DNA from: an uncultured Candidatus Saccharimonas sp.
GTDB taxonomy: Bacteria; Patescibacteriota; Saccharimonadia; Saccharimonadales; OMJO01
Direction: 5' to 3'
DNA length: 64,000 nt
NCBI GenBank assembly: GCA_943353165.1
Contig: CALRAM010000001.1
Location: 45,483 to 109,482 of the forward strand
Shown: one piece after another, positions 1,168 through 30,910 of the stretch
Layout: the number at the start of each line of letters is the position of its first letter
Numbering within the stretch: position 1 is the first letter of the stretch
Notes under the pieces: model-generated
The model's input: only the letters and a program-made list of their open reading frames with translations
The model's database searches: none
Told to the model about the DNA's origin: nothing
Made by a program: the position numbers and the translations under genes

Positions 1168-4100
1168 TTGAAAACAAATAGTTTAAACCCAAGTGACTAT
1201 GTGCATTTGCATAATCATACCCAGTACAGTTTGTTAGATGGCCTAACAAAAGTTCCTGCCTTAATGGATTTTATAAAAGAAAAAGGCATGAAAGCTGTCG
1301 CAATAACTGATCATGGGACTTTATCAGGTCTTATTGAATTTTATAAAGAAGCAAAATCTTCAAGACTAAAGCCTATTTTAGGAATAGAGACATACGTCGC
1401 ACCAAGATTACATACAGATAAAGACCCAGCAAAGGATAAATTAAATAATCACTTGATTATTTTAGCCATGAACCAGCAGGGTTACCGTAATCTCATGAGG
1501 CTAAGCACCATAGCTAACCTAGATGGGTTTTATTACAAACCCAGAATAGACCATAATTTATTAGAAAAATATAATGAGGGTTTAATAGTCCTTAGTGGTT
1601 GTATTGGTGGTGAAGTAGGAGACGCGCTTCGACAAGATCAATATGATGCAGCAAAAAAAACTGCCCAATGGTACAAAAAAGTTTTTGGCGACAGATATTA
1701 TCTAGAGATTCAAGACCATGGGCATAAGCTTCACCCAAAGAGCTGGAAAGAACAAGTTAAAGTTACAGAAAGTACCTTCAGGCTTGCCAAAGAACTTGAA
1801 ATACAAGCAGTTTTAACATGTGACGCTCATTATTTGAAACATGAAGACCAGCAAGCTCATGAGATATTATTGTGTGTTCAGACTGGTTCTTTTTTAACTG
1901 ACGAGAAAAGAATGTCTTTGAAAGATTTTGATTTAAATGTAGTAGATCCAGTCGATCTAATTAAACGATGGGGTAGTTCCAATCCAGAAATAATTACTAA
2001 TTCTTTAGTAATAGCAGAAAGATGTAACGTAAGTTTAGACTTTGGAAAGATATTAATCCCAAAATTTGACTTGCCTAAAAATGAAACAGAAAAAACGTTT
2101 ATGGACAGATTGGTGTATCAAGGATTAACTAACAGATATGCAAATATATCCGAAAAAAAATCTGAAAAGATGTCAATAGAAGAAGCAAAAAAATTATTGC
2201 CAAAAAAAGTTTTGTCTAGAGCATCGTACGAAATGTCAGTTATAGATAAAATGGGATTTAACGGCTATTTTTTGATTATTGCTGACTTTATAAAATGGGG
2301 AAAATCGCAACGCATAGTATTTGGACCTGGACGGGGCTCGGCCGCTGGATCAATAATCGCATATGCGCTAAAGATTACAGAGTTAGACCCTTTAGAATAC
2401 GATTTATTGTTCGAGCGTTTCCTAAATCCTGACCGTATATCTATGCCAGATATTGATATTGATATCCAAGACAACAGAAGAGATGAAGTTATAAAGTATT
2501 GTATACAAAAGTATGGAGAAAATAGGGTCGCCAATATAGTCACATTCGGTCGTATGGCAGCTAGAAATGCCGTCAGAGACGTCGCTAGAGTCTTGCAAGT
2601 ACCTTATGCAGATGCTGATAGGTGGTCAAAAATGATTCCCGCACCAATCCAAGGCAGGCATATACCTTTGAGCAAATCTTTAACTGCCGACAAAGACCTA
2701 AAACAAGTATACGAAAATGACGATCAAGCTAAAATTGTTTTTGATTTGGCAATTCAGATGGAGGGGACTATCAGAAGTCATGGTGTTCACGCAGCTGGAG
2801 TGGTGATTGCGCCAGACGATATAGTTTTGTTCGTACCACTAGAAAAAGCTCAAAAAGGCGTTGTTGCCACTCAGTACCCGATGGGTCCAATAGAGGATTT
2901 AGGTTTGCTAAAGATGGATTTTTTGGGATTATCAAACTTGACTACTATAAACAACGCGCTAAGAATTATCAAAAAAGTCTACAATAAGAGCATAGACATA
3001 AATACAATACCTCTTGACGATTTGAAAACTTACCAATTATTGCAGAGGGGCGACACTACAGGTATATTCCAATTTGAATCTCAAGGTATGAAAAGGTACC
3101 TAAAGGACCTAAAGCCAACTGTTTTTGATGACATTATAGCCATGGGCGCCCTATACAGGCCTGGTCCACTAGGCGCAGGCCTAACGCAGCGTTTTATAGA
3201 CAGAAAAAACGGAAAAGAAAAAATAGAATATGCCCACAAAAGCATGCGTTCGGCTCTCGGTTCTACCTACGGAGTTTTGGTATATCAAGAACAAGTTATG
3301 CGTATAGCCAAAGATATGTGTGGTTTTAGCGGAGGTGATGCTGATACCCTGAGAAAAGCCATAGGAAAGAAAAAAAGAGATGTTATGGCTAAAATGAAAG
3401 AGCAATTCATAACCGGTGCAATAGAAAAATCAAATGTTGATCGTGATTTTGTGGAAAAATTCTGGAAGGACCTTGAGGGGTTCGCCGATTATGCTTTCAA
3501 TAAATCTCACTCTGCTTGCTACGGACTTATTTCTTACCAGACAGCTTATTTAAAAGCGCATTACCCAGCTGCATATATGGCTTCTTTAATGACTAGCGAT
3601 TATGACGATACAGATAGGTTGGCTATAGAAATAACAGAATGCAAAAAAATTGGCATAGACGTTCTAGCGCCAGACATAAATGAGTCTTTTTTAGAATTTG
3701 CCGTTGTTCCAAAAGAAAAACAAATAAGGTTTGGCTTAGCCGCCATAAAAAATGTAGGTGCTGGCGCAGTTGATGAAATACTAAATGTCAGACCAACTGA
3801 AGGTTTCAAGAATTTACAAGACTTTTTTTCTAAAGTTAATAACAGGATTATTAATCGAAAAGTACTGGAGAGTTTAATTAAATCTGGTGCATTTGACAGA
3901 TTTGGCGAACGTAGCTTTCACCTAGCAAATTTAGATATATATATTTCGTATGCCTCTAGAAAACAAAAACAATTTTCTAGTGGTCAAACTGACTTATTTG
4001 GAAATTTGCTAGAGGAAACAACAGATTCATTACCTCAGCTAAAACTAGACTATACTGCGCAACCTATACCACTACGGGAACAATTAATGTGGGAACGTGA

Positions 4101-4802: not shown

Positions 4803-5687
4803 TTATTTAATTACTCCAGTTGTTGTGCTAAGAATAAAGCCAGCCAGTATTATTAGTAGTAATAATAGGTCAAATAGGGGATGTTTCATTAGAAATTTAC
4901 GACTACTTTTTATACTTAATTTTATGTTCCATGAATGTTTTAGTAATAATAGTAATAACCCTAGCGCTGTTATTATCCCAACAAGAAATGATATCCAAGG
5001 AGTTTTTCCTTTCGTAAGCTCTTGGGCTTTTGTTATATTTTGTTGAGTCGTAGCGATGTAAATGCTATTTTTTGTGCTTGATGATAGCGTAGGTTTAATA
5101 GTTTCTACAGAAGGCTGACCAAAGAAGGCAACTATTATAGTTTGGGGGCCTTTATCCCCAAAATTTGCACTTTTAGCAAATCCAAAACCTACTTCTGTGA
5201 ATACGCTACTTAGTAAAACATCTTTGTGGGTCTGGCTGTTCATCCAGCCGTATATGACGTTTTTACTAGTAGAAAAACCATAAGCTAGGTTTTCGCCAGC
5301 AGTATTATAAAGATATCCGGTTTCTTTTATGAATAACCATGGTTGTTGGCCATCTGGTGTTTCGTGGGACCAGTAATTTCTGGCGACCATATCATTGGCT
5401 TTGTTTTGGGCTGCTGTATTAAGTTTTGCGTTTAGTGTCAGATCTTTTTGACCAACTAGATTGCGTTGCGCATTTGTGGCTTGTAGGAGAGTCGTGTCTT
5501 TAGCATCTATAGTATAAGAAAGAACACTATGTCTTGGAAGTTTGTTGGTGTGTATTCCTCCAAAATATAATCCAAAAACTGATATGAGCAAAATTGGTAT
5601 GTACGGCCAGTAAGCTTTTAGGTATGGCTTTGTATGTTTATGTTTTGGAGATTTTACGTGATGTTTACGTATTATTTTTACAGGCAT
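4803..5687 (-). CDS. CAP/SCP (PR-1-like, YkwD-like) domain protein with N- and C-terminal TM segments
   Basis: CAP-domain signatures (NYWSHETPDGQQPW, GENLAYGF, WMNSQTHKDVLL) plus hydrophobic segments at both termini. Confidence 0.7.
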   Translation of the reverse strand: MPVKIIRKHHVKSPKHKHTKPYLKAYWPYIPILLISVFGLYFGGIHTNKLPRHSVLSYTIDAKDTTLLQATNAQRNLVGQKDLTLNAKLNTAAQNKANDMVARNYWSHETPDGQQPWLFIKETGYLYNTAGENLAYGFSTSKNVIYGWMNSQTHKDVLLSSVFTEVGFGFAKSANFGDKGPQTIIVAFFGQPSVETIKPTLSSSTKNSIYIATTQQNITKAQELTKGKTPWISFLVGIITALGLLLLLLKHSWNIKLSIKSSRKFLMKHPLFDLLLLLIILAGFILSTTTGVIK

Positions 5688-16466: not shown

Positions 16467-17435
16467 ATGTACACCTATAAAAGAAAGCTAAGTTTTGGGT
16501 TAGCTATGACATTTGTAGCGGTGCTCCCGCTCTTGTTGCTTGTAAAAAAACAGCAAATTATTGACTGGACTCAACTAAGGAATTATAAACCTGATTCAAT
16601 AATCTCTAAGCTAGCAGTAGATACTACTATGAGTAACCTTGGAAGACATTTGTTTTATGTAAATCATCCTACACTTCATGAAAAATCAACATTTGCTGGA
16701 CATTGCAAAATTAGTGAGCTAACAAACATTTTGGGATGTTACGTAAGTGGAGACGGTATCTACCTTTACGATGTCAAGGATCCTCGTTTGTCTGGCATAA
16801 AAGAAGCCACTTCAGCTCACGAAATGTTGCACGTAGCATACGAAAGATTAAGTGCTACAGAAAAAGTTAAAGTCAACAAAATGTTACTAGACGTTTATTC
16901 TAAAGTTACAGATACACGCATAAAAAATACTATTGCAAGCTACAAAAAAGCAGGTGCAGATACTACAAATGAACTGCATTCTATTTTAGGTACTGAAATA
17001 TTGGCTTTGACTCCTGACCTAGAGAACTATTACAAGAAATATTTTACAAATCGCACAGCAGTAGTCAAATATTTTAATCAGTATCAAAATGCCTTTGAAG
17101 AAAGAAAAAACAAAGTCGAGCAATATGATATTTCTCTTGCCAGCATAAAATCCAGAATAGAAAATCTAGAATATGACCTTAAAAATGAAGCTTCTAGCCT
17201 AGAAAACGAACGTTCCAGGATGAATAATTTGATAGCGAACAATCAAGTTTCGGAGTACAACCAAGCAGTACCCATATTTAATCGTAGAATAGAAGCCTAT
17301 AATAATAAAACCAAAGTCGTAAAACAACTAGTAGATGACTATAACGGTATAGTTATTGAACGCAACAACATTGCGACAGAAGAAAATGAACTTATCAAAG
17401 CCATAGATAGCAGTCCTGTAAATATTAAAGTTTAG
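16467..17435 (+). CDS. hypothetical membrane-anchored protein with HExxH motif and C-terminal coiled coil
   Basis: 322 aa with an N-terminal TM helix, AHEMLH (HExxH), a later NELHS motif, and a heptad-like Asn/Glu/Lys-rich C-terminal third. Confidence 0.6.
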   Translation: MYTYKRKLSFGLAMTFVAVLPLLLLVKKQQIIDWTQLRNYKPDSIISKLAVDTTMSNLGRHLFYVNHPTLHEKSTFAGHCKISELTNILGCYVSGDGIYLYDVKDPRLSGIKEATSAHEMLHVAYERLSATEKVKVNKMLLDVYSKVTDTRIKNTIASYKKAGADTTNELHSILGTEILALTPDLENYYKKYFTNRTAVVKYFNQYQNAFEERKNKVEQYDISLASIKSRIENLEYDLKNEASSLENERSRMNNLIANNQVSEYNQAVPIFNRRIEAYNNKTKVVKQLVDDYNGIVIERNNIATEENELIKAIDSSPVNIKV

Positions 17436-26363: not shown

Positions 26364-27182
26364 ATGTATAGCGGTACAACATTAAATAAAACATCTGGTC
26401 GTATTCTAGGTACACACCAAAAAATAGACAGAGTAGCTCGAAAGCATTTGTCTGTTATTTTAGAAGATAACAACGTTTTTCCTAAAGCAAACGCCATACT
26501 GCATTTTGAAGGCAAAAATGGCCCCGATGGCATCAAACGCAAGAGTCCCGCAAAGGACGAGCTGTGGCACTATTATAGTCCTTTTGACGACGATGATTCG
26601 GCCTTGCTAGATCTGATAAGAAACCATTACGACAAATTAGTCACAGAACTGCGTGCAAATAACGTTGAGCGAGTAGCATTCGAAGCTGCCTGGCTGTCCC
26701 ACGCTTTGGTTGACGGCCTAACGCCTGCGCATCATTACCCATATGAAGAAAAACTTTCCGAACTAAGGGGAGGCGAAGGTATGGAAAGCCGTGATTCTGT
26801 AAAAGATAAACTAATAATGCCAGGCAATACGCGTAGACAAAAGGTCAAAAACAATTGGAAAATGTGGGGACCAAAAGGATTGTTTACTACTCATGGTTTA
26901 TTCGAGATGGGTGTGGCCACAATTATGGCACCACTGGCCATGAAGGATGCAATGCCAACCGAATCTGATATAAATGAGCTTCTAGATATAGGCCTGTTAG
27001 AACGTTTTAAGAGAACAGCCAGAGAAATCGCAGTTTTAGATATGTACCATAATTATTATAAAAAAGGTTGGACACCCAAGTTTGCACACCAGGTTCGTCA
27101 TCAACTGGGCCCTGTAATAGTTAAAACAGTAACATTAGCATGGTATAGCGCCTTGATTGACGCCGGCAAAGTTAACAAATGA
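26364..27182 (+). CDS. hypothetical protein, possibly zinc-dependent phospholipase C / P1-nuclease-like fold
   Basis: 272 aa with no signal peptide. GTHQKIDRVARKHL and SHALVDGLTPAHH (H-x3-D-x5-H) resemble the metal-ligand spacing of the PLC/P1 superfamily. This assignment is from memory of motifs only. Confidence 0.45.
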   Translation: MYSGTTLNKTSGRILGTHQKIDRVARKHLSVILEDNNVFPKANAILHFEGKNGPDGIKRKSPAKDELWHYYSPFDDDDSALLDLIRNHYDKLVTELRANNVERVAFEAAWLSHALVDGLTPAHHYPYEEKLSELRGGEGMESRDSVKDKLIMPGNTRRQKVKNNWKMWGPKGLFTTHGLFEMGVATIMAPLAMKDAMPTESDINELLDIGLLERFKRTAREIAVLDMYHNYYKKGWTPKFAHQVRHQLGPVIVKTVTLAWYSALIDAGKVNK

Positions 27183-27709
27183 GAGTAATTTCAGGATCTT
27201 TGGGTGGCCAAAATTTTGAATCTCCTCATGGCCATAGAACTCATCCCATGAGCGACAAAATACGCGGTGCCATTTTTGGTGTATTAGGAGATATTAGCGG
27301 CTGTAGCGTGTTGGACGCTTTTTCTGGTAGCGGAGCTTTAGCCATAGAAGCCATCAGTAGAGGATCGTCTAGCGCTGTAGCCGTAGAAGTTGATGCTGGC
27401 GCACACGCTATAATAGTCAAAAACATCCAAAAGCTTGGAATAGAAAAAAAAGTTAAAGTTGTTCGGGCATTTGTAAATGCCTGGTCCACTAGGCATCAGG
27501 ACCAGTTATTTGACATTATCTTTGCAGATCCACCATACGACAATATCCCATATCGCGATCTTAAATTTTTAGCCAGACACCTAAAGCCAACCGGCACACT
27601 GGTATTGTCTTGGCCTGGCAAAGCAGATGTATACTATATTCCCGAACTAATTGAAGTTCAGATCAAAAAATACGGCGATGCCCAGCTAATATTTTATAAA
27701 TATGCATAA
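27179..27709 (+). CDS. rsmD: 16S rRNA (guanine966-N2)-methyltransferase RsmD
   Basis: MRVISGSLGGQNFESP.., LDAFSGSGALAIEAISRG and a DPPY motif. The start overlaps the upstream stop (ATGA). Confidence 0.85.
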   Translation: MRVISGSLGGQNFESPHGHRTHPMSDKIRGAIFGVLGDISGCSVLDAFSGSGALAIEAISRGSSSAVAVEVDAGAHAIIVKNIQKLGIEKKVKVVRAFVNAWSTRHQDQLFDIIFADPPYDNIPYRDLKFLARHLKPTGTLVLSWPGKADVYYIPELIEVQIKKYGDAQLIFYKYA

Positions 27710-27790
27710 TCATATTTTACTAATTACGCAAAATTTAGTACAATAACAGAGTGGTATAAGGAAAAAACATATGGATCTGTCGTATGTTAT

Positions 27791-27818
27791 GCGGACGACC
27801 GTGGCTGAAGGTTCATCC
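27791..27818 (+). repeat. tRNA-Leu-derived mini-fragment (5' acceptor/D start fused to a T-arm-like segment)
   Basis: GCGGACGACCGTGG matches the 5' end of the interrupted tRNA at 27851. The following CTGAAGGTTCATCC resembles CGTGAAGGTTCAAGTCC of the intact tRNA. Confidence 0.4.
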
Positions 27819-27890
27819 TATACGCCAAGTACGATACAATTTATAATTACGCGGACGATCGTGGAATTGGTAGACACGCTAGCCTTAGGA

Positions 27891-27998
27891 GTGAAACCCG
27901 CCTGTGGCGGGTTGCAAGGTCGGAAGCCTGGATTGCGCAAGCAACCAAGCTGAGACGGGGTCGCAACCGATTGGACTATGTCCAATAGGATTGTGACA
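27891..27998 (+). repeat. structured element copy A (variant): HP1 CCCGCC-TGT-GGCGGG, HP2 capped by GCAA, HP3 with extra nested hairpin
   Basis: GTGAAA-CCCGCCTGTGGCGGGTTGCAAGG-[AGCCTGGATTGC-GCAA-GCAACCAAGCT]-CGGGGTCGCAA..TTGGACTATGTCCAA..ATTGTGAC. It replaces the 3' anticodon-stem strand of the tRNA-like gene. Confidence 0.6.
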
Positions 27999-28017
27999 GT
28001 GCCGCAAGGCGTGAAGG

Positions 28018-28104
28018 AGAGACCCGCCTGTGGCGGGTCGCAAGGTAGACAACTCTTGCGAACTGGTTTGCAAAGATGTTGCTACGGGGTCGCTGAAAGT
28101 GACC
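28018..28104 (+). repeat. structured element copy B, inserted in place of TTC of the T-loop
   Basis: AGAGA-CCCGCCTGTGGCGGG-TCGCAAGG-[TAGACAACTCTTGCGAACTGGTTTGCAAAGATGTTGCTA]-CGGGGTCGCTGAAAGTGACC, flanked by GAAGG on the 5' side and AAGTCCTTT on the 3' side. Confidence 0.65.
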
Positions 28105-28151
28105 AAGTCCTTTTCAAAAGCCTCTTGAACCTTCATAATATTATACAGTGC

Positions 28152-28236
28152 GCGGATGTGGTGGAATTGGTAGACACGCTAGCCTTAGGAGCTAGTGCCG
28201 CAAGGCGTGAAGGTTCAAGTCCTTTCATCCGCACCA
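28152..28236 (+). tRNA. tRNA-Leu, anticodon TAG (UAG), class II long variable arm, CCA encoded
   Basis: Manual fold. Acceptor GCGGATG/CATCCGC. D stem GTG/CAC with GAATTGGTAGA loop. Anticodon stem CTAGC/GCTAG with loop CTTAGGA. Variable arm TGCCGCAAGGCGT. T arm GAAGG-TTCAAGT-CCTTT. Discriminator A followed by CCA. Confidence 0.9.
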
Positions 28237-28239
28237 ATC

Positions 28240-28270
28240 AAAAAATGCTCTCTTTTGAGAGCTTTTTTTG
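28240..28270 (+). terminator. intrinsic terminator after tRNA-Leu
   Basis: GCTCTC-TTTT-GAGAGC followed by a T run and preceded by an A run. Confidence 0.7.
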
Positions 28271-28297
28271 ATTTGTTCTGGAAGGTCTTGAACCAAA

Positions 28298-28422
28298 CCC
28301 TAAGGCGTGAAGGCGAGAGCCGCCTGTGGCGGGTTGCAGGGAAACCTTTCAGATTATCTACTTGTTGATAGTATGAAAGTTTTGGGGTCGCGGAACGTGA
28401 CCAAGTCCTTTCATCCGCACCA
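28298..28422 (+). repeat. tRNA-Leu 3'-portion-like unit carrying structured element copy C; ends in an exact copy of the tRNA 3' end (AAGTCCTTTCATCCGCACCA)
   Basis: CCCTAAGGCGTGAAGG-CGAGA-GCCGCCTGTGGCGGG-TTGCAGGG-[~42-nt hairpin]-GGGGTCGCGGAACGTGACC-AAGTCCTTTCATCCGCACCA. The element core spans 28314-28402. Confidence 0.65.
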
Positions 28423-28455
28423 AAACAAGTGACCCCGAAAGGGGTCTTTTGTTTT
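28423..28455 (+). terminator. intrinsic terminator after unit C
   Basis: GACCCC-GAAA-GGGGTC followed by TTTTGTTTT. The sequence is unrelated to the terminator at 28240. Confidence 0.7.
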
Positions 28456-28490
28456 GGTGGTCGAAATGCCCAGAACCTTCACCCTAAAAA

Positions 28491-28648
28491 GGCGTGAAGG
28501 GGAGAGCCGCCTGTGGCGGGTTGCAAGGCAACTTTACAGATTTCAAACTTGTTTGAAGTATGTAAATTGAGGGGTCGTGGAACGTGACCGAGCCCCCTGT
28601 CTTTCTGACAAGAAGGCCAGGCAGGACGGACAGGTTTCATTCACACCA
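28491..28648 (+). repeat. tRNA-Leu 3'-portion-like unit carrying structured element copy D plus a further ~45-nt hairpin insertion; degenerate 3' end TTTCATTCACACCA
   Basis: GGCGTGAAGG-GGAGA-GCCGCCTGTGGCGGG-TTGCAAGG-[hairpin]-GGGGTCGTGGAACGTGACC (core 28501-28589), then GAG-CCCCCTGTC..GGACAGG-TTTCATTCACACCA. Confidence 0.6.
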
Positions 28649-28686
28649 ACCATATATTGTATGAACTGACACAAAATAACACCTAT

Positions 28687-28712
28687 AGAGGAACGTCCTC
28701 TTTCTCTTGTTT
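28687..28712 (+). terminator. weak intrinsic-terminator-like hairpin downstream of unit D
   Basis: AGAGGA-ACG-TCCTCT followed by the T-rich tract TTCTCTTGTTT. The T tract follows the stem only on the + strand, so it is not the terminator of the LOG gene on the - strand. Confidence 0.4.
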
Positions 28713-28750
28713 CTGTTCTACACCCAATAGACTTGTAATTGATTTTTTAC

Positions 28751-29329
28751 TCATACAAATTTGTCCGCTAGTTCTTTTGTCTGATAATTCTTAAAATAAT
28801 TTAAGATATCATTCAAATCACTGCCAATAAACACAAAATCACTAAAAGGCACTTTTGAGAAATCTTTCTGTTGCATTTCATCTAGGAATTTTATGAGCGT
28901 ATCGTAAAAACCATCATAGTTAAAAATAGCAATCGGTTTGTCGTATAGTTTATTTACTTTACCACCAACAATTTCTCCAATTTCTTCAAATGTTCCGTAG
29001 CCGCCGGGCAAAATAATAAATGCGTCTGATTCAAAAACTATACGATGTTTGCGGTCGTCCATAGTTTCTTCTAAGTATGTTTTATCAAGTCCATCAAATG
29101 CTACATAGCCTTTGGTAACTGCCATCAAATCTTTTGCCATCACGCCAGTCAAATCATTGCCGCCAGCGTCTTTATAGGCTTTAGCAAGTTCAGACATCAT
29201 CCCATAGTCTGTTCCACCATAAACAATACCCATTTTTTCATTAGCAAGTCGTTCGGCAACTTCTATAGTCAAATCAATATATTCCTGCCCAACTGACAAA
29301 GAAGATGTAAGAGTTATACCCACTTTCAT
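28751..29329 (-). CDS. LOG-family protein (TIGR00730-type Rossmann-fold nucleotide-binding / phosphoribohydrolase)
   Basis: GIVYGGTDYGMM and the PGGYGTFEE motif (LOG family PGGxGTxxE). I chose the ATG at 29329 (MKVGITL..) inside tracked ORF 28751-29356. Confidence 0.85.
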   Translation of the reverse strand: MKVGITLTSSLSVGQEYIDLTIEVAERLANEKMGIVYGGTDYGMMSELAKAYKDAGGNDLTGVMAKDLMAVTKGYVAFDGLDKTYLEETMDDRKHRIVFESDAFIILPGGYGTFEEIGEIVGGKVNKLYDKPIAIFNYDGFYDTLIKFLDEMQQKDFSKVPFSDFVFIGSDLNDILNYFKNYQTKELADKFV

Positions 29330-29421
29330 AAATCTAATTATACAACAATTACCCAAAAATCTTTTCAGCCAAAAACTAAAAACCCTACAGAGCAGTTCAG
29401 CGAGTCGCCCAGAACCCTAAG

Positions 29422-29520
29422 GCGTGAAGGGGGGACCCGCCTGTGGCGGGCCGGACGTAAACAAACTCTTGAAAACTGGTTTTCAAAGATGTTTTTCTGG
29501 GTGAGATGAGAAGGGGGCTC
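29422..29520 (+). repeat. structured element copy E (5' part and HP2 conserved, linker and HP3 degenerate)
   Basis: GGCGTGAAGG-GGGGA-CCCGCCTGTGGCGGG-CCGGACG-[AAACAAACTCTTGAAAACTGGTTTTCAAAGATGTTTTT]-CTGGGTGAG.. HP2 is homologous to that of copy B. The 3' end coordinate is approximate. Confidence 0.5.
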
Positions 29521-29602
29521 ATTGTATAGGGACACAGACAAGATTATTCTACATCATCGATTACTAAAACCTATTTATGATGTATTATAAATAGGAATAA
29601 CT

Positions 29603-30910
29603 ATGGCACTATCTACACAACCATACAAAGGATCTAGGGATTTTTACCCAGAAGACAAGCGTCTCCAAAAACATATATTTGGAGTCATGCGTTCTATCTC
29701 TGAAAAATACGGCTACCAGGAATATGATTCGCCTATTTTAGAACCTACAGAAATATATTCAAACAAAACAAACGAAGAGATTGTAAACGAACAAACATAC
29801 ACATTCGAGGATCGGGGTAATAGAAAAGTTACTATTCGCCCAGAAATGACTCCATCAGTCAGTCGAATGGTTGCAGCCAAAAGGCAAGAGCTTCCATATC
29901 CGTTGCGTTGGTACTCGTTGCCCGTCAACTGGCGATATGAACGCCCTCAACGTGGCAGACTACGTGAATTTTGGCAACTAAACGTTGATTTGTTTGGTAT
30001 CGCAGGCTTAGAGGCAGAAGCAGAAGTCATCCAAGTCGCAGACGATATCATGAAGGCTTTTGGCGCTAAACCAAACATGTACAAAATAAAGATTAACAGC
30101 CGCAATTTGATGGATTACTTTATCAGCGATAGTTTGGGCATGGATAGCGTACAGTCGTCTGTACTAGTTCCGTTAATTGACCGGATGCATAAAATGGATT
30201 TTGCAGAATTTTCTGGGCAAGTAGAAGCGATATTTACACCTTCACAACGCGAAAATTCCGGACCTGATCAGTTATTTGAATTTTTAAAGATAACTAGTAT
30301 CGACGACCTACCCATTTCAATAAAAAACCATCCCTCTGTGATTACGCTAGTCAATTTGATAAAAAGGCTGACAAACGCGGGAATTACAAATGCTGTGTTC
30401 GAACCAACACTAATGCGAGGTTTTAACTACTACACAGATGTAGTATTCGAGGTTTTTGATACCCATCCAGACAATAATCGTTCTATGTTTGGTGGAGGGC
30501 GCTACGATGGCTTGGTAGGCGCCTACGGAGTAGAATCAGTCCCGACAGTCGGATTTGGCATGGGAGATGTGACAATATACAATTTTTTGGAATCACACGG
30601 CCTTACACCAACAGTCAAAACAGAAACGGATGTATGCGCGATTATTATAGGCGATACGCTAGAGCCCGCCCTAAAAATTATTTCTGAGCTAAGAGAAATG
30701 GGACTAAATGTTGCAGTGGCCAGTACCGAACAAAAGATAGACAAACAGATCAAAATAGCTGTCAAAAACGGCATAAAATTTGCAGTATTTTTAGGAGAAA
30801 AAGAGATAAAAAATCAACAAGTACTACTCAAAAATTTAGAAAATAGTACAGAAGAAATCGTCAGTTCACAGAGAGCAGTCAGCATCATCAAAGACTTTCG
30901 TATAAAATGA
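29603..30910 (+). CDS. hisS: histidine--tRNA ligase
   Basis: 435 aa with class II motifs (KGSRDFYPED, WRYERPQRGRLREFWQ, GGGRYDGL) and an anticodon-binding C-terminal domain. Confidence 0.9.
   Translation: MALSTQPYKGSRDFYPEDKRLQKHIFGVMRSISEKYGYQEYDSPILEPTEIYSNKTNEEIVNEQTYTFEDRGNRKVTIRPEMTPSVSRMVAAKRQELPYPLRWYSLPVNWRYERPQRGRLREFWQLNVDLFGIAGLEAEAEVIQVADDIMKAFGAKPNMYKIKINSRNLMDYFISDSLGMDSVQSSVLVPLIDRMHKMDFAEFSGQVEAIFTPSQRENSGPDQLFEFLKITSIDDLPISIKNHPSVITLVNLIKRLTNAGITNAVFEPTLMRGFNYYTDVVFEVFDTHPDNNRSMFGGGRYDGLVGAYGVESVPTVGFGMGDVTIYNFLESHGLTPTVKTETDVCAIIIGDTLEPALKIISELREMGLNVAVASTEQKIDKQIKIAVKNGIKFAVFLGEKEIKNQQVLLKNLENSTEEIVSSQRAVSIIKDFRIK

Follow-up and report, generated by a model that had tools for sequence, protein, structure and literature searches.

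Is the single gene that lies behind a tRNA-Leu gene in this Saccharimonas genome a small mobile cassette, and what do the repeats on either side of it represent? Saccharibacteria and other Patescibacteria have tiny genomes with few recognised mobile elements, and their exchange of accessory genes is poorly understood. A sequence-only reading of the 64-kb window (the whole stretch of 64,000 nucleotides that was analysed) had described a LOG-family gene bracketed by direct repeats of part of an element, and had interpreted it as an integrase-less cassette. Our results suggest that this cassette reading of the LOG locus is broadly right.

Both repeats were found where they had been placed and in the same orientation: positions 28468-28520 read GCCCAGAACCTTCACCCTAAAAAGGCGTGAAGGGGAGAGCCGCCTGTGGCGGG and positions 29408-29451 read GCCCAGAACCCTAAGGCGTGAAGGGGGGACCCGCCTGTGGCGGG, with two substitutions and two indels between them (9 nt in total). 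As a bracketing pair they are real, but they belong to a larger family. Their 14-nt core CCGCCTGTGGCGGG occurs five times in the 64 kb, always on the forward strand and within 27.9-29.5 kb, against a chance expectation of 0.08. The two repeats form the left parts of two out of five same-strand copies of a ~90-nt element, here called E, located at 27890, 28016, 28312, 28499 and 29429, all at the tRNA-Leu locus.

The only gene between E copies 4 and 5 is on the opposite strand, as had been claimed. It is an intact LOG/TIGR00730-type gene of 192 aa (28751..29329, minus strand), which matched Pfam Lysine_decarbox/LOG (PF03641, 6.3e-23; 81.8 bits against a cut-off of 27) and PF18306 (3e-8), and which carries PGGYGTFEE, an instance of the PGGxGTxxE motif. 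The reported absence of an integrase or transposase likewise held among the ten candidate ORFs of the window that were scanned with Pfam, the remaining large ORFs being taken as housekeeping genes from their position alone.

E has a conserved layout. GG-UGA leads into a first hairpin (8 bp, UGU loop); GCAAG joins this to a second hairpin, which is long and variable, and GG joins the second to a third one of 7 bp, in which one G.U pair never changes. In the alignment 93.1% of the cells were paired, compared with 70.6% in shuffles and 32-48% when the partners were slid, and 25 of the 30 pairs showed changes on both sides. The alignment holds 62 G.T pairs versus 7 A.C, which indicates that pairing is confined to the tRNA-sense strand. 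The bases of junctions and loops do not vary. E starts with UGA.. and closes with ..GUGACC, its hairpins 1 and 3 are mutually unlike, and the 5' flanks have only GG in common. A GUGA/UYGC pairing proposed by RNAalifold was dropped for the 8-bp hairpin 1 on account of compensatory changes, for example from GA/UC to AG/CU and to AA/UU. In a covariance search of 27500-29700 against Rfam 15 (E <= 10), tRNA alone scored above its gathering score, which no E copy attained for any family; two sub-threshold CRISPR-DR matches (E 6-10) overlap copies 1-2. A literature search that included the E core sequence itself found no description of it, and E is apparently undescribed so far. Its conservation, strong covariation and absence from Rfam make E a concrete candidate for a structured site of recombination, a mobile element or an RNA of a new kind.

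Strong covariation combined with invariant unpaired bases is the usual sign of a functional fold. E could thus be an RNA whose structure has a function, in the form of a small RNA on a tRNA scaffold or of a self-cleaving ribozyme. It would be expressed from tRNA promoters, stabilised by its tRNA-like flanks and maintained in several copies by selection, and the placement of LOG between two copies would be incidental. This would be in line with pairing restricted to the transcribed sense strand, with the co-orientation of E and tRNAs, with terminators after the units inspected, and with the position of a pseudo-tRNA carrying copies 1-2 behind the original tRNA promoter. E may also represent a new self-cleaving or protein-recruiting RNA class.

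Each window copy of E sits in a loop of a partial tRNA-Leu copy near the true, functional tRNA-Leu(UAG), which lies at 28152..28236 (ARAGORN; Rfam tRNA, 60.5 bits). The features of this array are on the plus strand unless stated otherwise. Upstream, 27787..27851 holds a degenerate tRNA-Leu remnant, with its 5' end fused to the T arm, and the original tRNA promoter region (..caatttataattac); its promoter-proximal sequence stands directly 5' of the real tRNA in two other alleles of the locus, B and C. Next comes a pseudo-tRNA-Leu (27852..28122), a near-perfect tRNA copy (31-nt and 20-nt blocks are 100% identical to the tRNA) with a degenerate 3' acceptor strand, interrupted by E copies 1 and 2. 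Copy 1 (27890..27996; covariance model R1, 42.1 bits, E 8e-9) has an extended third hairpin and stands in place of CT at tRNA positions 40-41, in the 3' strand of the anticodon stem. Copy 2 (28016..28104; 103.7 bits, E 3e-24) stands in place of the T-loop TTC. A healing test yielded no tRNA from this pseudogene. A -35-like TTGAAC 5' of the tRNA lies only 8-11 nt from any -10, too close for a promoter element, and was recognised as an inverted T-arm piece.

Downstream of the tRNA, terminator hairpin 1 (28233..28276) overlaps the CCA end; it is an inverted repeat whose 20-nt arms are 90% complementary, with a T run behind it. It forms part of a cargo-less module of ~186 nt at 28237..28423, a span that runs from the end of the first 22-nt repeat through the second and is based on the repeat spacing of 186 and a three-allele alignment. 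The module further comprises an inverted T-arm piece, a copy of tRNA positions 44-53, and E copy 3 (28312..28402; 77.7 bits), whose host is the T loop of a CCA-terminated 3' fragment of tRNA-Leu. It is bounded by 22-nt direct repeats (CAAGTCCTTTCATCCGCACCAA) that start at 28216 and 28402. Terminator hairpin 2 (28418..28459), also an inverted repeat, follows the real tRNA in allele B. The left half of the first LOG repeat (28463..28500) consists of an inverted T-arm piece and the hairpin CCTTCAC/GTGAAGG, the 3' arm of which is again a tRNA 44-53 copy; this stretch folds at -17.6 kcal/mol (z = -3.4). The motif GGCGTGAAGG, earlier proposed as an att site, is ordinary tRNA-Leu sequence of about positions 44-53, which covers the variable arm and the 5' side of the T stem.

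E copy 4 (28499..28589; 76 bits), previously called unit D, is followed by a degenerate 3' tRNA-Leu fragment with an inserted hairpin (28590..28647; ..ggacaggtttcattcacacca), whose homologue in allele C is found on the HisS side of LOG. The supposed weak terminator at 28676..28712, a short hairpin followed by TTTCTCTT, is the left end of a block shared by alleles A and C. Past LOG, a 53-nt segment common to alleles A, B and C (29355..29407; tttcagccaaaaac..cagcgagtc) terminates in a sequence (GGCGGGTC) similar to the 3' arm of hairpin 1. In the second repeat, the left half (29408..29430) is an inverted T-arm remnant with a tRNA 44-53 copy. This repeat had been regarded as the 5' part of the element only; it instead leads into a nearly whole, degenerate E copy 5 (29429..29507; 49.2 bits), in which junction 2 reads CCGGACG and hairpin 3 is lost, and which runs into a further module (GGGTGAGATGAG..) that begins at ~29500. 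Copy 5 shares 94% identity with the E nearest the tRNA in allele C and 93% with copy 4' of allele B. The tRNA 3'-end repeats are 22 nt long around the 186-nt module and eroded around LOG, where the left one, belonging to copy 4, is degenerate and none is present past copy 5.

The insertion of LOG did not create these repeats, either as a target duplication or as an att pair: copies 4 and 5 are different E variants, with differing second hairpins. Nor does the cassette end at the repeats: the block common to alleles A and C (28676-29407) has its ends elsewhere. The notion of a small cassette at a tRNA gene holds in the sense that the block is strain-variable, but not in the sense that LOG insertion produced the repeats.

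This variability emerged from the comparison of the 28.5-29.4 kb block across genomes that the sequence-only reading had proposed, which revealed three different layouts among near-identical strains. Allele A is the layout of the window, with LOG. Allele B (L042/L054) has a 100% identical RsmD and flanks of 96-99% identity; at LOG's place it carries a 110-aa CBU_0592-like gene in the opposite direction, and it is missing the 186-nt E module. Allele A equals allele B plus this module with its flanking tRNA 3'-end repeats. In allele C (L073), LOG lies on the other side of the right part of copy 4, and the order relative to the E copies is changed. Copy 4 of allele A and copy 4' of allele B agree in every base through GGCGGGT in hairpin 1 and part company beyond it; their right halves differ, and both reappear elsewhere in allele C. 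The three alleles are compatible with gain as well as with loss of modules. A functional RNA is hard to reconcile with E copies that vary in number and order among near-identical strains, decay (copy 5), form chimeras (copy 4/4') and disrupt a complete tRNA gene (in strain L018), and E is without an Rfam match. We consider that explanation quite unlikely.

The explanation that we favour, with slightly more than even confidence, is a strain-variable array of E modules that is anchored at tRNA-Leu(UAG) and reshuffled by repeat recombination, in which LOG is the lodged remnant of an acquired module. Every module would close with a partial tRNA copy that has E in its loop. Recombination would add, remove and rearrange modules, whether or not they contain a gene, and would act at two kinds of repeats, namely the direct repeat of the tRNA 3' end and the ~30-nt invariant core of E. 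LOG would be what survives of a LOG-CBU_0592 module that arrived horizontally and lodged between copies 4 and 5; the two repeats around it are the left ends of E units 4 and 5. We infer that repeat recombination moves the blocks. The enzymes would act in trans, either through homologous recombination after DNA uptake or as a site-specific enzyme that reads folded single-strand E. The erosion of the tRNA-fragment repeats around LOG speaks against this explanation, and ordinary homologous recombination among dispersed repeats, rather than a dedicated system, could also yield all the differences between alleles A, B and C.

The origin of LOG as part of a larger module is suggested by the 38 nt at 28713..28750 (minus strand), the leftover 5' end of a CBU_0592-family gene. 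In blastn, 28713-28751, which adds one base of the LOG stop to the 38 nt, was 89.7% identical to the CBU_0592-like gene of allele B, in opposite orientation. A LOG-CBU_0592 operon is present at three other loci (L072, L075 and L062), and homology to L072 reaches 28713. Judging from these alignments, the remnant is in all likelihood a leftover of this operon, and LOG a truncated LOG-CBU_0592 module. At L062, LOG-CBU_0592 is flanked by two inverted copies of the 53-nt segment. Two LOG homologues adjoin tRNA-Gln, with a confirmed E unit at L075 and an assembly gap where E is expected at L062. In line with the earlier suggestion of horizontal acquisition, LOG looks horizontally exchanged, because homologues of 95, 90, 88, 85 and 76% identity occur in unrelated contexts while the flanking HisS has no relative above 67% identity outside its own cluster.

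The same discordance bears on the simplest explanation, that the repeats reflect chance or simple local duplication and that LOG belongs to the core genes, with vertical descent and an unchanging context. The GC and GC3 of LOG (0.354 and 0.285) are within the native range, so that the suggested check of composition gave no signal, and the exact LOG protein occurs on at least 24 population contigs, always in the layout of the window. Yet the excess of core copies, the E family at 42 loci elsewhere, the existence of alleles B and C, and the contrast between LOG and HisS make this explanation extremely improbable.

The survey of E yielded 66 copies at 42 Patescibacteria loci, mostly in Saccharibacteria, all of them beside or inside tRNA genes; the adjoining tRNAs represent at least 11 amino-acid types. 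E was co-oriented with the tRNA in 60 of the 61 copies that have a tRNA within 1.5 kb, and the sole exception lies inside a disrupted tRNA-Ser with which it is itself co-oriented. Copies occur in D, anticodon, variable and T loops, and the same variants are found at differing tRNAs in different genomes. Replacement of E by a short filler restored a tRNA at only one of 46 sites; the other 45 are partial tRNA copies. An informative case is tRNA-Ser(CGA), which is intact in L037, whereas in the 99%-identical strain L018 the full-length gene has E replacing exactly the T-loop TTC (GAGGG-TTC-GAATCC becomes GAGGG-E-GAATCC), with TTC lost and no duplication. This E in an otherwise intact tRNA gene is without any module architecture, which implies that E can exist independently of modules and counts against the favoured module explanation. 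Group I introns have been described in Patescibacteria tRNAs, at positions 35/36 (PMC13011429). E resembles tRNA introns (group I, or archaeal bulge-helix-bulge introns at non-canonical positions) as a loop insertion at several positions, with similar inserts in different tRNAs, but it falls short of the size of a group I intron and had no RF00028 match at E <= 10. A tRNA intron was rejected, since removal of E heals only the one site and even the full-length case misses its T-loop TTC.

In an alternative and less likely explanation, E would be a miniature mobile element, non-autonomous, with the single-stranded loops of tRNA genes as its insertion targets, perhaps in a displaced, cloverleaf-folded sense strand, while LOG turnover would result from ordinary island integration and homologous recombination. 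Insertions would survive only in dispensable targets, such as tRNA fragments left by island traffic and redundant tRNAs, and E would be a passenger. The pair of empty and filled tRNA-Ser(CGA) genes, the range of loops occupied and the same variants at different tRNAs across genomes all agree with this, and survivorship would predict the predominance of partial copies. One locus (L005) has a putative large-serine-recombinase ORF (520 aa, N-terminal resemblance, with a 6-bp repeat) between tRNA-Gly and its E unit, possibly a classical island that represents such separate traffic. However, E is without terminal inverted repeats or target duplication, it replaces 2-3 nt of the target instead of adding to it, its 5' flanks agree only in GG, and its end hairpins are mutually unlike, in contrast to IS200/IS605 ends. 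No transposase was seen nearby in 14 loci, and this explanation would not account for the inverted T-arm piece and hairpin that immediately precede E, in stereotyped form, in the downstream units. MITEs have terminal inverted repeats and duplicate their target, and IS200/IS605 elements have alike subterminal hairpins at their two ends and a fixed target of 4-5 nt. The missing inverted repeats and duplication, the lost TTC and the dissimilar end hairpins led us to reject a MITE or IS200/IS605-type element.

No recombinase or transposase recurred as a neighbour of E in those 14 loci, and none was present among the ten window ORFs scanned; the mechanism of module recombination is putative. The exact E core had no match in IMG/VR, a relaxed pattern gave 4 matches of which none was upheld by the covariance model, and blastn of INPHARED phages and PLSDB plasmids gave no match. 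A phage or plasmid origin was set aside, with no confirmed match in these three databases.

tRNA genes are integration hot spots, where integrase-borne islands leave direct repeats of the tRNA 3' end. Cargo-only satellites at tRNA genes have reportedly been described for the tycheposons of Prochlorococcus. Like tRNA islands, our locus has variable accessory genes 3' of the tRNA gene, a module (of 186 nt) with direct repeats of the tRNA 3' end, 22 nt long, on its two sides, tandem arrays with more decayed distal fragments, and some modules without an integrase. Unlike these islands, it has in every tRNA fragment a conserved, structured insert of 90 nt placed exactly at the T loop, an inverted copy of the T-arm region before each fragment, and modules without cargo; similar E units also lie 5' of tRNAs, in 5' tRNA copies. 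The LOG block differs from integrase-borne islands in that its sole gene is LOG, with no integrase inside.

Integron cassettes offer another comparison. They too are small and often carry a single gene, and attC sites, like E, are structured, strand-specific and variable in sequence with a conserved fold. Junctions fall within the site (in E, within hairpin 1), and cargo includes toxin-antitoxin pairs. It is conceivable, although we find it rather improbable, that E units serve an integron-like cassette system as recombination sites folded from a single strand, with the recombinase in trans and a tRNA gene instead of attI as anchor. The inverted T-arm piece would then pair with the next tRNA 44-53 copy into a duplex that mimics the tRNA T-arm region, with E branching out at the place of TT, as an attC or CTX-phage hairpin mimics a double-stranded site, and cassettes would enter by exchange within the tRNA 3' segment. 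In contrast to integrons, no IntI, attI or Pc was found nearby (ten window ORFs scanned, and related loci), E is without the R''(RYYYAAC)..R'(GTTRRRY) boxes of attC, cargo lies in either orientation (LOG antisense to the tRNA, the allele-B gene sense) with its own upstream region, and the array is anchored at a tRNA gene with the site embedded in a tRNA fragment. The lack of IntI among the ten ORFs, the lack of boxes and the mixed cargo orientation led us to reject an integron cassette array proper.

Short structured repeats that invade genes include the Rickettsia palindromic elements, REP/BIME, and Correia/ERIC-type MITEs. E shares with these repeats a length of ~100 nt, a multicopy occurrence with strain-variable copy number, a stable fold, possible locations within RNA or protein genes, and an association with recombination breakpoints. 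It differs in having three hairpins with conserved junctions instead of one palindrome and no inverted termini, and in its confinement, in the present data, to loops of tRNA genes and their fragments.

The recurring architecture, in which a tRNA gene is followed by a terminator, an inverted T-arm piece and E in a tRNA fragment, marks sites where gene content changes at the strain level, and covariance model R1 provides a handle for locating such genomic islets in Patescibacteria genomes. E at tRNA loci also breaks metagenome assemblies and can cause annotation to miss interrupted tRNA genes. At two other loci, E units stand on both sides of a gene pair, RelB/YafQ (L013) and SMODS+SLATT (L004), and hence E-linked cargo includes toxin-antitoxin pairs and defence genes in addition to nucleotide metabolism (LOG).

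The variable region of the locus (27.78–29.53 kb) lies between rsmD (27179–27709) and hisS (29603–30910), and tRNA-Leu(UAG) at 28152–28236 is its sole functional tRNA. The core sequence CCGCCTGTGGCGGG occurs five times in the 64 kb, always on the + strand and always within this region, compared with 0.08 occurrences expected by chance. R1, a covariance model of the ~90-nt folded element E built after the core search, recovers exactly five copies from the window, with nothing else above noise. These are copy 1 (27890–27983, 42.1 bits), copy 2 (28016–28104, 103.7 bits), copy 3 (28312–28402, 77.7 bits), copy 4 (28499–28589, 76.0 bits) and copy 5 (29429–29507, 49.2 bits), all on the + strand. The sequence-only reading had described two direct repeats bracketing the LOG/TIGR00730-type gene (LOG; 28751–29329, – strand, 192 aa). 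Both repeats are present as described, but they are not an isolated pair: they are the left flanks and first hairpin of E copies 4 and 5, and hence members of the five-copy family. Elsewhere in the window, a 322-aa ORF between infB and radA (16467–17435, + strand) has no Pfam match at an E-value ≤ 0.001.

The layout of E, derived from 28 canonical copies, reads 5′ to 3′ GG-UGA, hairpin 1 (8 bp, loop UGU or AGU), GCAAG, hairpin 2 (about 15–17 bp, four sequence classes, conserved apical loop), GG and hairpin 3 (7 bp, GAA-type loop). Paired cells amount to 93.1%, versus 70.6% in column shuffles (0 of 500 as high as observed) and 32–48% when partners are slid. Changes on both sides occur in 25 of the 30 pairs and one G.U pair is conserved in 28/28 copies; there is almost no variation at the unpaired positions of junctions and loops. 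Hairpin 1 covaries fully (e.g. CCGCC/GGCGG, AATGCC/GGCATT, CAATTC/GAATTG; GA/UC to AG/CU). Of the paired cells, 718 are Watson-Crick, 62 are G.T and only 7 are A.C, and therefore the fold is that of the tRNA-sense strand, whether RNA or single-stranded DNA. Such covariation would fit a functional RNA, an explanation against which the copy-number variation of E, the decay of its copies and the existence of chimeric copies all argue. Tandem forms, with hairpins 1 and 2 twice and then a single hairpin 3, occur in the related loci L008, L017, L020, L021 and L036.

All five window copies lie inside a loop of a partial tRNA-Leu copy. A pseudo-tRNA-Leu (27852–28122) is interrupted by copy 1, in place of CT at positions 40–41 in the 3′ strand of the anticodon stem, and by copy 2, in place of the T-loop TTC. 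It is otherwise near-perfect, with blocks of 31 and 20 nt that are 100% identical to the tRNA-Leu gene, apart from a degenerate 3′ acceptor strand. Copies 3, 4 and 5 occupy the T loop of 3′ tRNA-Leu fragments; at copy 3 the order is GGCGTGAAGG, E, AAGTCCTTTCATCCGCACCA. These fragments are more decayed farther from tRNA-Leu: the one at copy 3 is perfect, the one at copy 4 is degenerate with an inserted hairpin, and at copy 5 it is absent. An inverted T-arm copy lies ahead of the downstream E units; in the copy 4 unit it pairs with a copy of tRNA positions 44–53 to form a hairpin. Window positions 28124–28135, 17 nt upstream of the tRNA-Leu start, match the inverse complement of this tRNA's T arm perfectly over 12 nt (CTTGAACCTTCA versus TGAAGGTTCAAG), and similar pieces precede the real tRNA in L001, L002, L012, L017 and L028.

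Two units with related architecture carry no E. Downstream of tRNA-Leu(UAG) in L014 (5200–5375), an inverted T-arm piece, the T stem 5′ strand, an insert, the T loop 3′ part and the acceptor strand follow each other; the ~95-nt insert (tcgtgtagcgaggacg..aagtgcgc) is unrelated to E and may represent a second family at the same T-loop position. Compared to L018, L037 has an extra unit (1690–1795, – strand) of terminator, inverted T-arm piece, small hairpin and TTC, with a 20-nt repeat of the tRNA-Arg(GCG) 3′ end on either side. Its tRNA homology begins exactly at TTC, in which it resembles a classical attR.

Beyond the window too, the fold of E is conserved and strand-specific, and it occurs at tRNA loci only. 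A 22-mer scan of species-representative genomes yielded 14 loci, of which 12 are labelled Saccharibacteria, Saccharimonadales, Patescibacteria group or unclassified bacterium. One lies on a Doudnabacteria-labelled contig (L005), which may be mis-binned because Saccharibacteria contigs of the same study match its E end exactly, and one, from Moraniibacteriota, holds the first hairpin only. A metagenome scan added 28 loci. Across the window and these 42 loci, 61/66 copies have a tRNA within 1.5 kb, representing at least 11 amino-acid types, and 60 of the 61 are co-oriented with it; the single exception sits inside a disrupted tRNA-Ser, with which it is co-oriented. Upstream copies lie 33–220 nt from the tRNA, in the D, anticodon or variable loop of 5′ tRNA copies. 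Downstream copies lie in the T loop of 3′ tRNA fragments, the first 33–114 nt past the tRNA and later array copies up to 1.2 kb away. In the Moraniibacteriota MAG (L011 3585–3600, – strand), a pseudo-tRNA-Val upstream of tRNA-Val(CAC) carries no more of E than the 15 nt of hairpin 1 (CCGCCTGTGGCGGGT), located in the anticodon stem 3′ strand; its T loop contains another GC-rich hairpin. L011 is not matched by the full model R1, and the 15-nt sequence may be a footprint of E or a minimal unit.

L037 and L018 are 99% identical, and tRNA-Ser(CGA) is intact in the former; in the latter it is full-length with E exactly in place of the T-loop TTC (GAGGG|TTC|GAATCC to GAGGG|E|GAATCC). This pair shows that E is a discrete presence/absence polymorphism, without target duplication or inverted ends. 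The main alternative to a role in module exchange would make E a mere passenger, an independent miniature element that targets loops. Its presence in this full-length gene and the survivorship pattern of E sites favour a passenger, but E lacks any transposon-like ends and its flanking architecture is stereotyped. When short fillers substitute for E, a full tRNA is restored at only 1/46 sites, namely this tRNA-Ser(CGA) of L018.

Near-identical strains, found by exact look-up of the RsmD, LOG and HisS proteins, differ in modules that either have tRNA 3′ repeats at their borders or are joined inside E. The window layout (allele A) is common (at least 24 contigs), and two other layouts were found. 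In allele B (L042/L054; RsmD 100% identical, flanks 96–99%), rsmD is followed by an additional DUF2268 gene, only one pseudo-tRNA lies upstream and carries E in its variable arm, copy 3 is missing, and a 110-aa CBU_0592-like gene in the tRNA direction takes the place of LOG. In module terms, A equals B plus a cargo-less 186-nt module (terminator 1, inverted T-arm piece, tRNA 44–53 copy, copy 3) with a perfect 22-nt repeat of the tRNA 3′ end on either side; the terminator after copy 3 in A is that directly after the tRNA in B. Copy 4 and its counterpart in B share one sequence from the terminator as far as GGCGGGT in hairpin 1 and have different right halves past that point. Allele C (L073; hisS 98%, LOG block 95.5% nucleotide identity) lacks the upstream pseudo-tRNA and has one tRNA-proximal E, 94% identical to copy 5 of A; its LOG block (window 28676–29407) is placed to the left of copy 4's right part, and the two meet in the hairpin 1 loop. 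The A/B switch and the join in C thus give at least two independent junctions in hairpin 1, and the 186-nt module gives one at the tRNA 3′ repeat. A third hairpin 1-centred rearrangement occurs in L004 (3643–3779), where a ~50-nt GC-rich hairpin replaces the 3′ arm of hairpin 1. In more distantly related loci (L010, L014, L039; RecG 53–59% identical), rsmD, an E-bearing pseudo-tRNA and tRNA-Leu(UAG) are retained, but the downstream genes differ and include neither LOG nor hisS.

The 28.5–29.4 kb block, which the sequence-only reading took for a LOG cassette, is therefore strain-variable, and that proposal was right in outline: LOG is an exchanged, truncated module, although the repeats are E units and not the footprint of its insertion. 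The 38 nt past the LOG stop codon (28713–28750) are a 5′-end remnant of a CBU_0592-family gene, which directly follows LOG in L072 (95% protein identity; 94% nucleotide identity, over 28713–29345 only), L075 and L062. Alleles A and B thus each retain a different half of a LOG-CBU_0592 module, and the two halves point in opposite directions. Horizontal exchange, also proposed earlier, is borne out by LOG homologues of 76–95% identity in other contexts: beside histidine-phosphatase, desaturase and P-type ATPase genes (95%), in a hydrolase operon (90%), beside tRNA-Gln(UUG) with flanking ~80-nt inverted repeats (88%, L062), beside tRNA-Gln(CUG) followed by a terminator and E unit (85%, L075), and between cupin and Rrf2 genes (76%). 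In contrast, a collection of 5.8 billion proteins holds no HisS relative above 67% outside its own 90% cluster. LOG has moved, whether the genomes bearing it are of the same or other species; composition gives no sign of transfer because the donors are similar. In L062, the inverted repeats (3900–4010 and 4930–5020) flank the LOG-CBU_0592 pair, each with a hairpin resembling hairpin 1 of E (CGGCGGGTC..GACACGCCG), and window 29355–29407 (53 nt) corresponds to one arm.

These exchanges suggest that the E/tRNA repeats serve as substrates, either for ordinary homologous recombination between scattered repeat copies once DNA has been taken up, or for a dedicated enzyme that would act in trans; no recombinase was found among the ten candidate ORFs scanned in the window, nor recurrently beside E in 14 loci. 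Other cargo includes a RelB/YafQ pair between the second and third of three E units after tRNA-Lys(CUU) (L013), and about 3.4 kb with a SMODS nucleotidyltransferase and SLATT effector between two E units (L004). A 5.8-kb classical island at the CCA end of tRNA-Gly(GCC) distinguishes L005 (1–6030) from L006 (1–215). It lies between the tRNA and its E unit, has a 6-bp repeat GCACCA and encodes a 520-aa ORF whose N-terminal sequence we take to resemble a large serine recombinase. The ends of this island do not include E; tRNA ends of this kind serve as integration hot spots in general.

Both tRNA-linked islets and structured repeat elements are known kinds. What we see combined here is a conserved three-hairpin insert placed precisely in tRNA-fragment loops, an inverted T-arm piece, and modules both with and without cargo; no described family in Rfam or the literature searched matches the full combination. 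E itself had no match in Rfam or in phage and plasmid collections, and no description of its core was found in that literature. Even so, we consider it rather unlikely that E units constitute a genuinely new cassette system or RNA class. The E repeats also break up short-read assemblies at tRNA loci: contigs L058, L059, L019, L005, L006 and L027 end inside or beside E, and in L062 a run of N (3675–3775) marks a scaffold gap where E would be expected.
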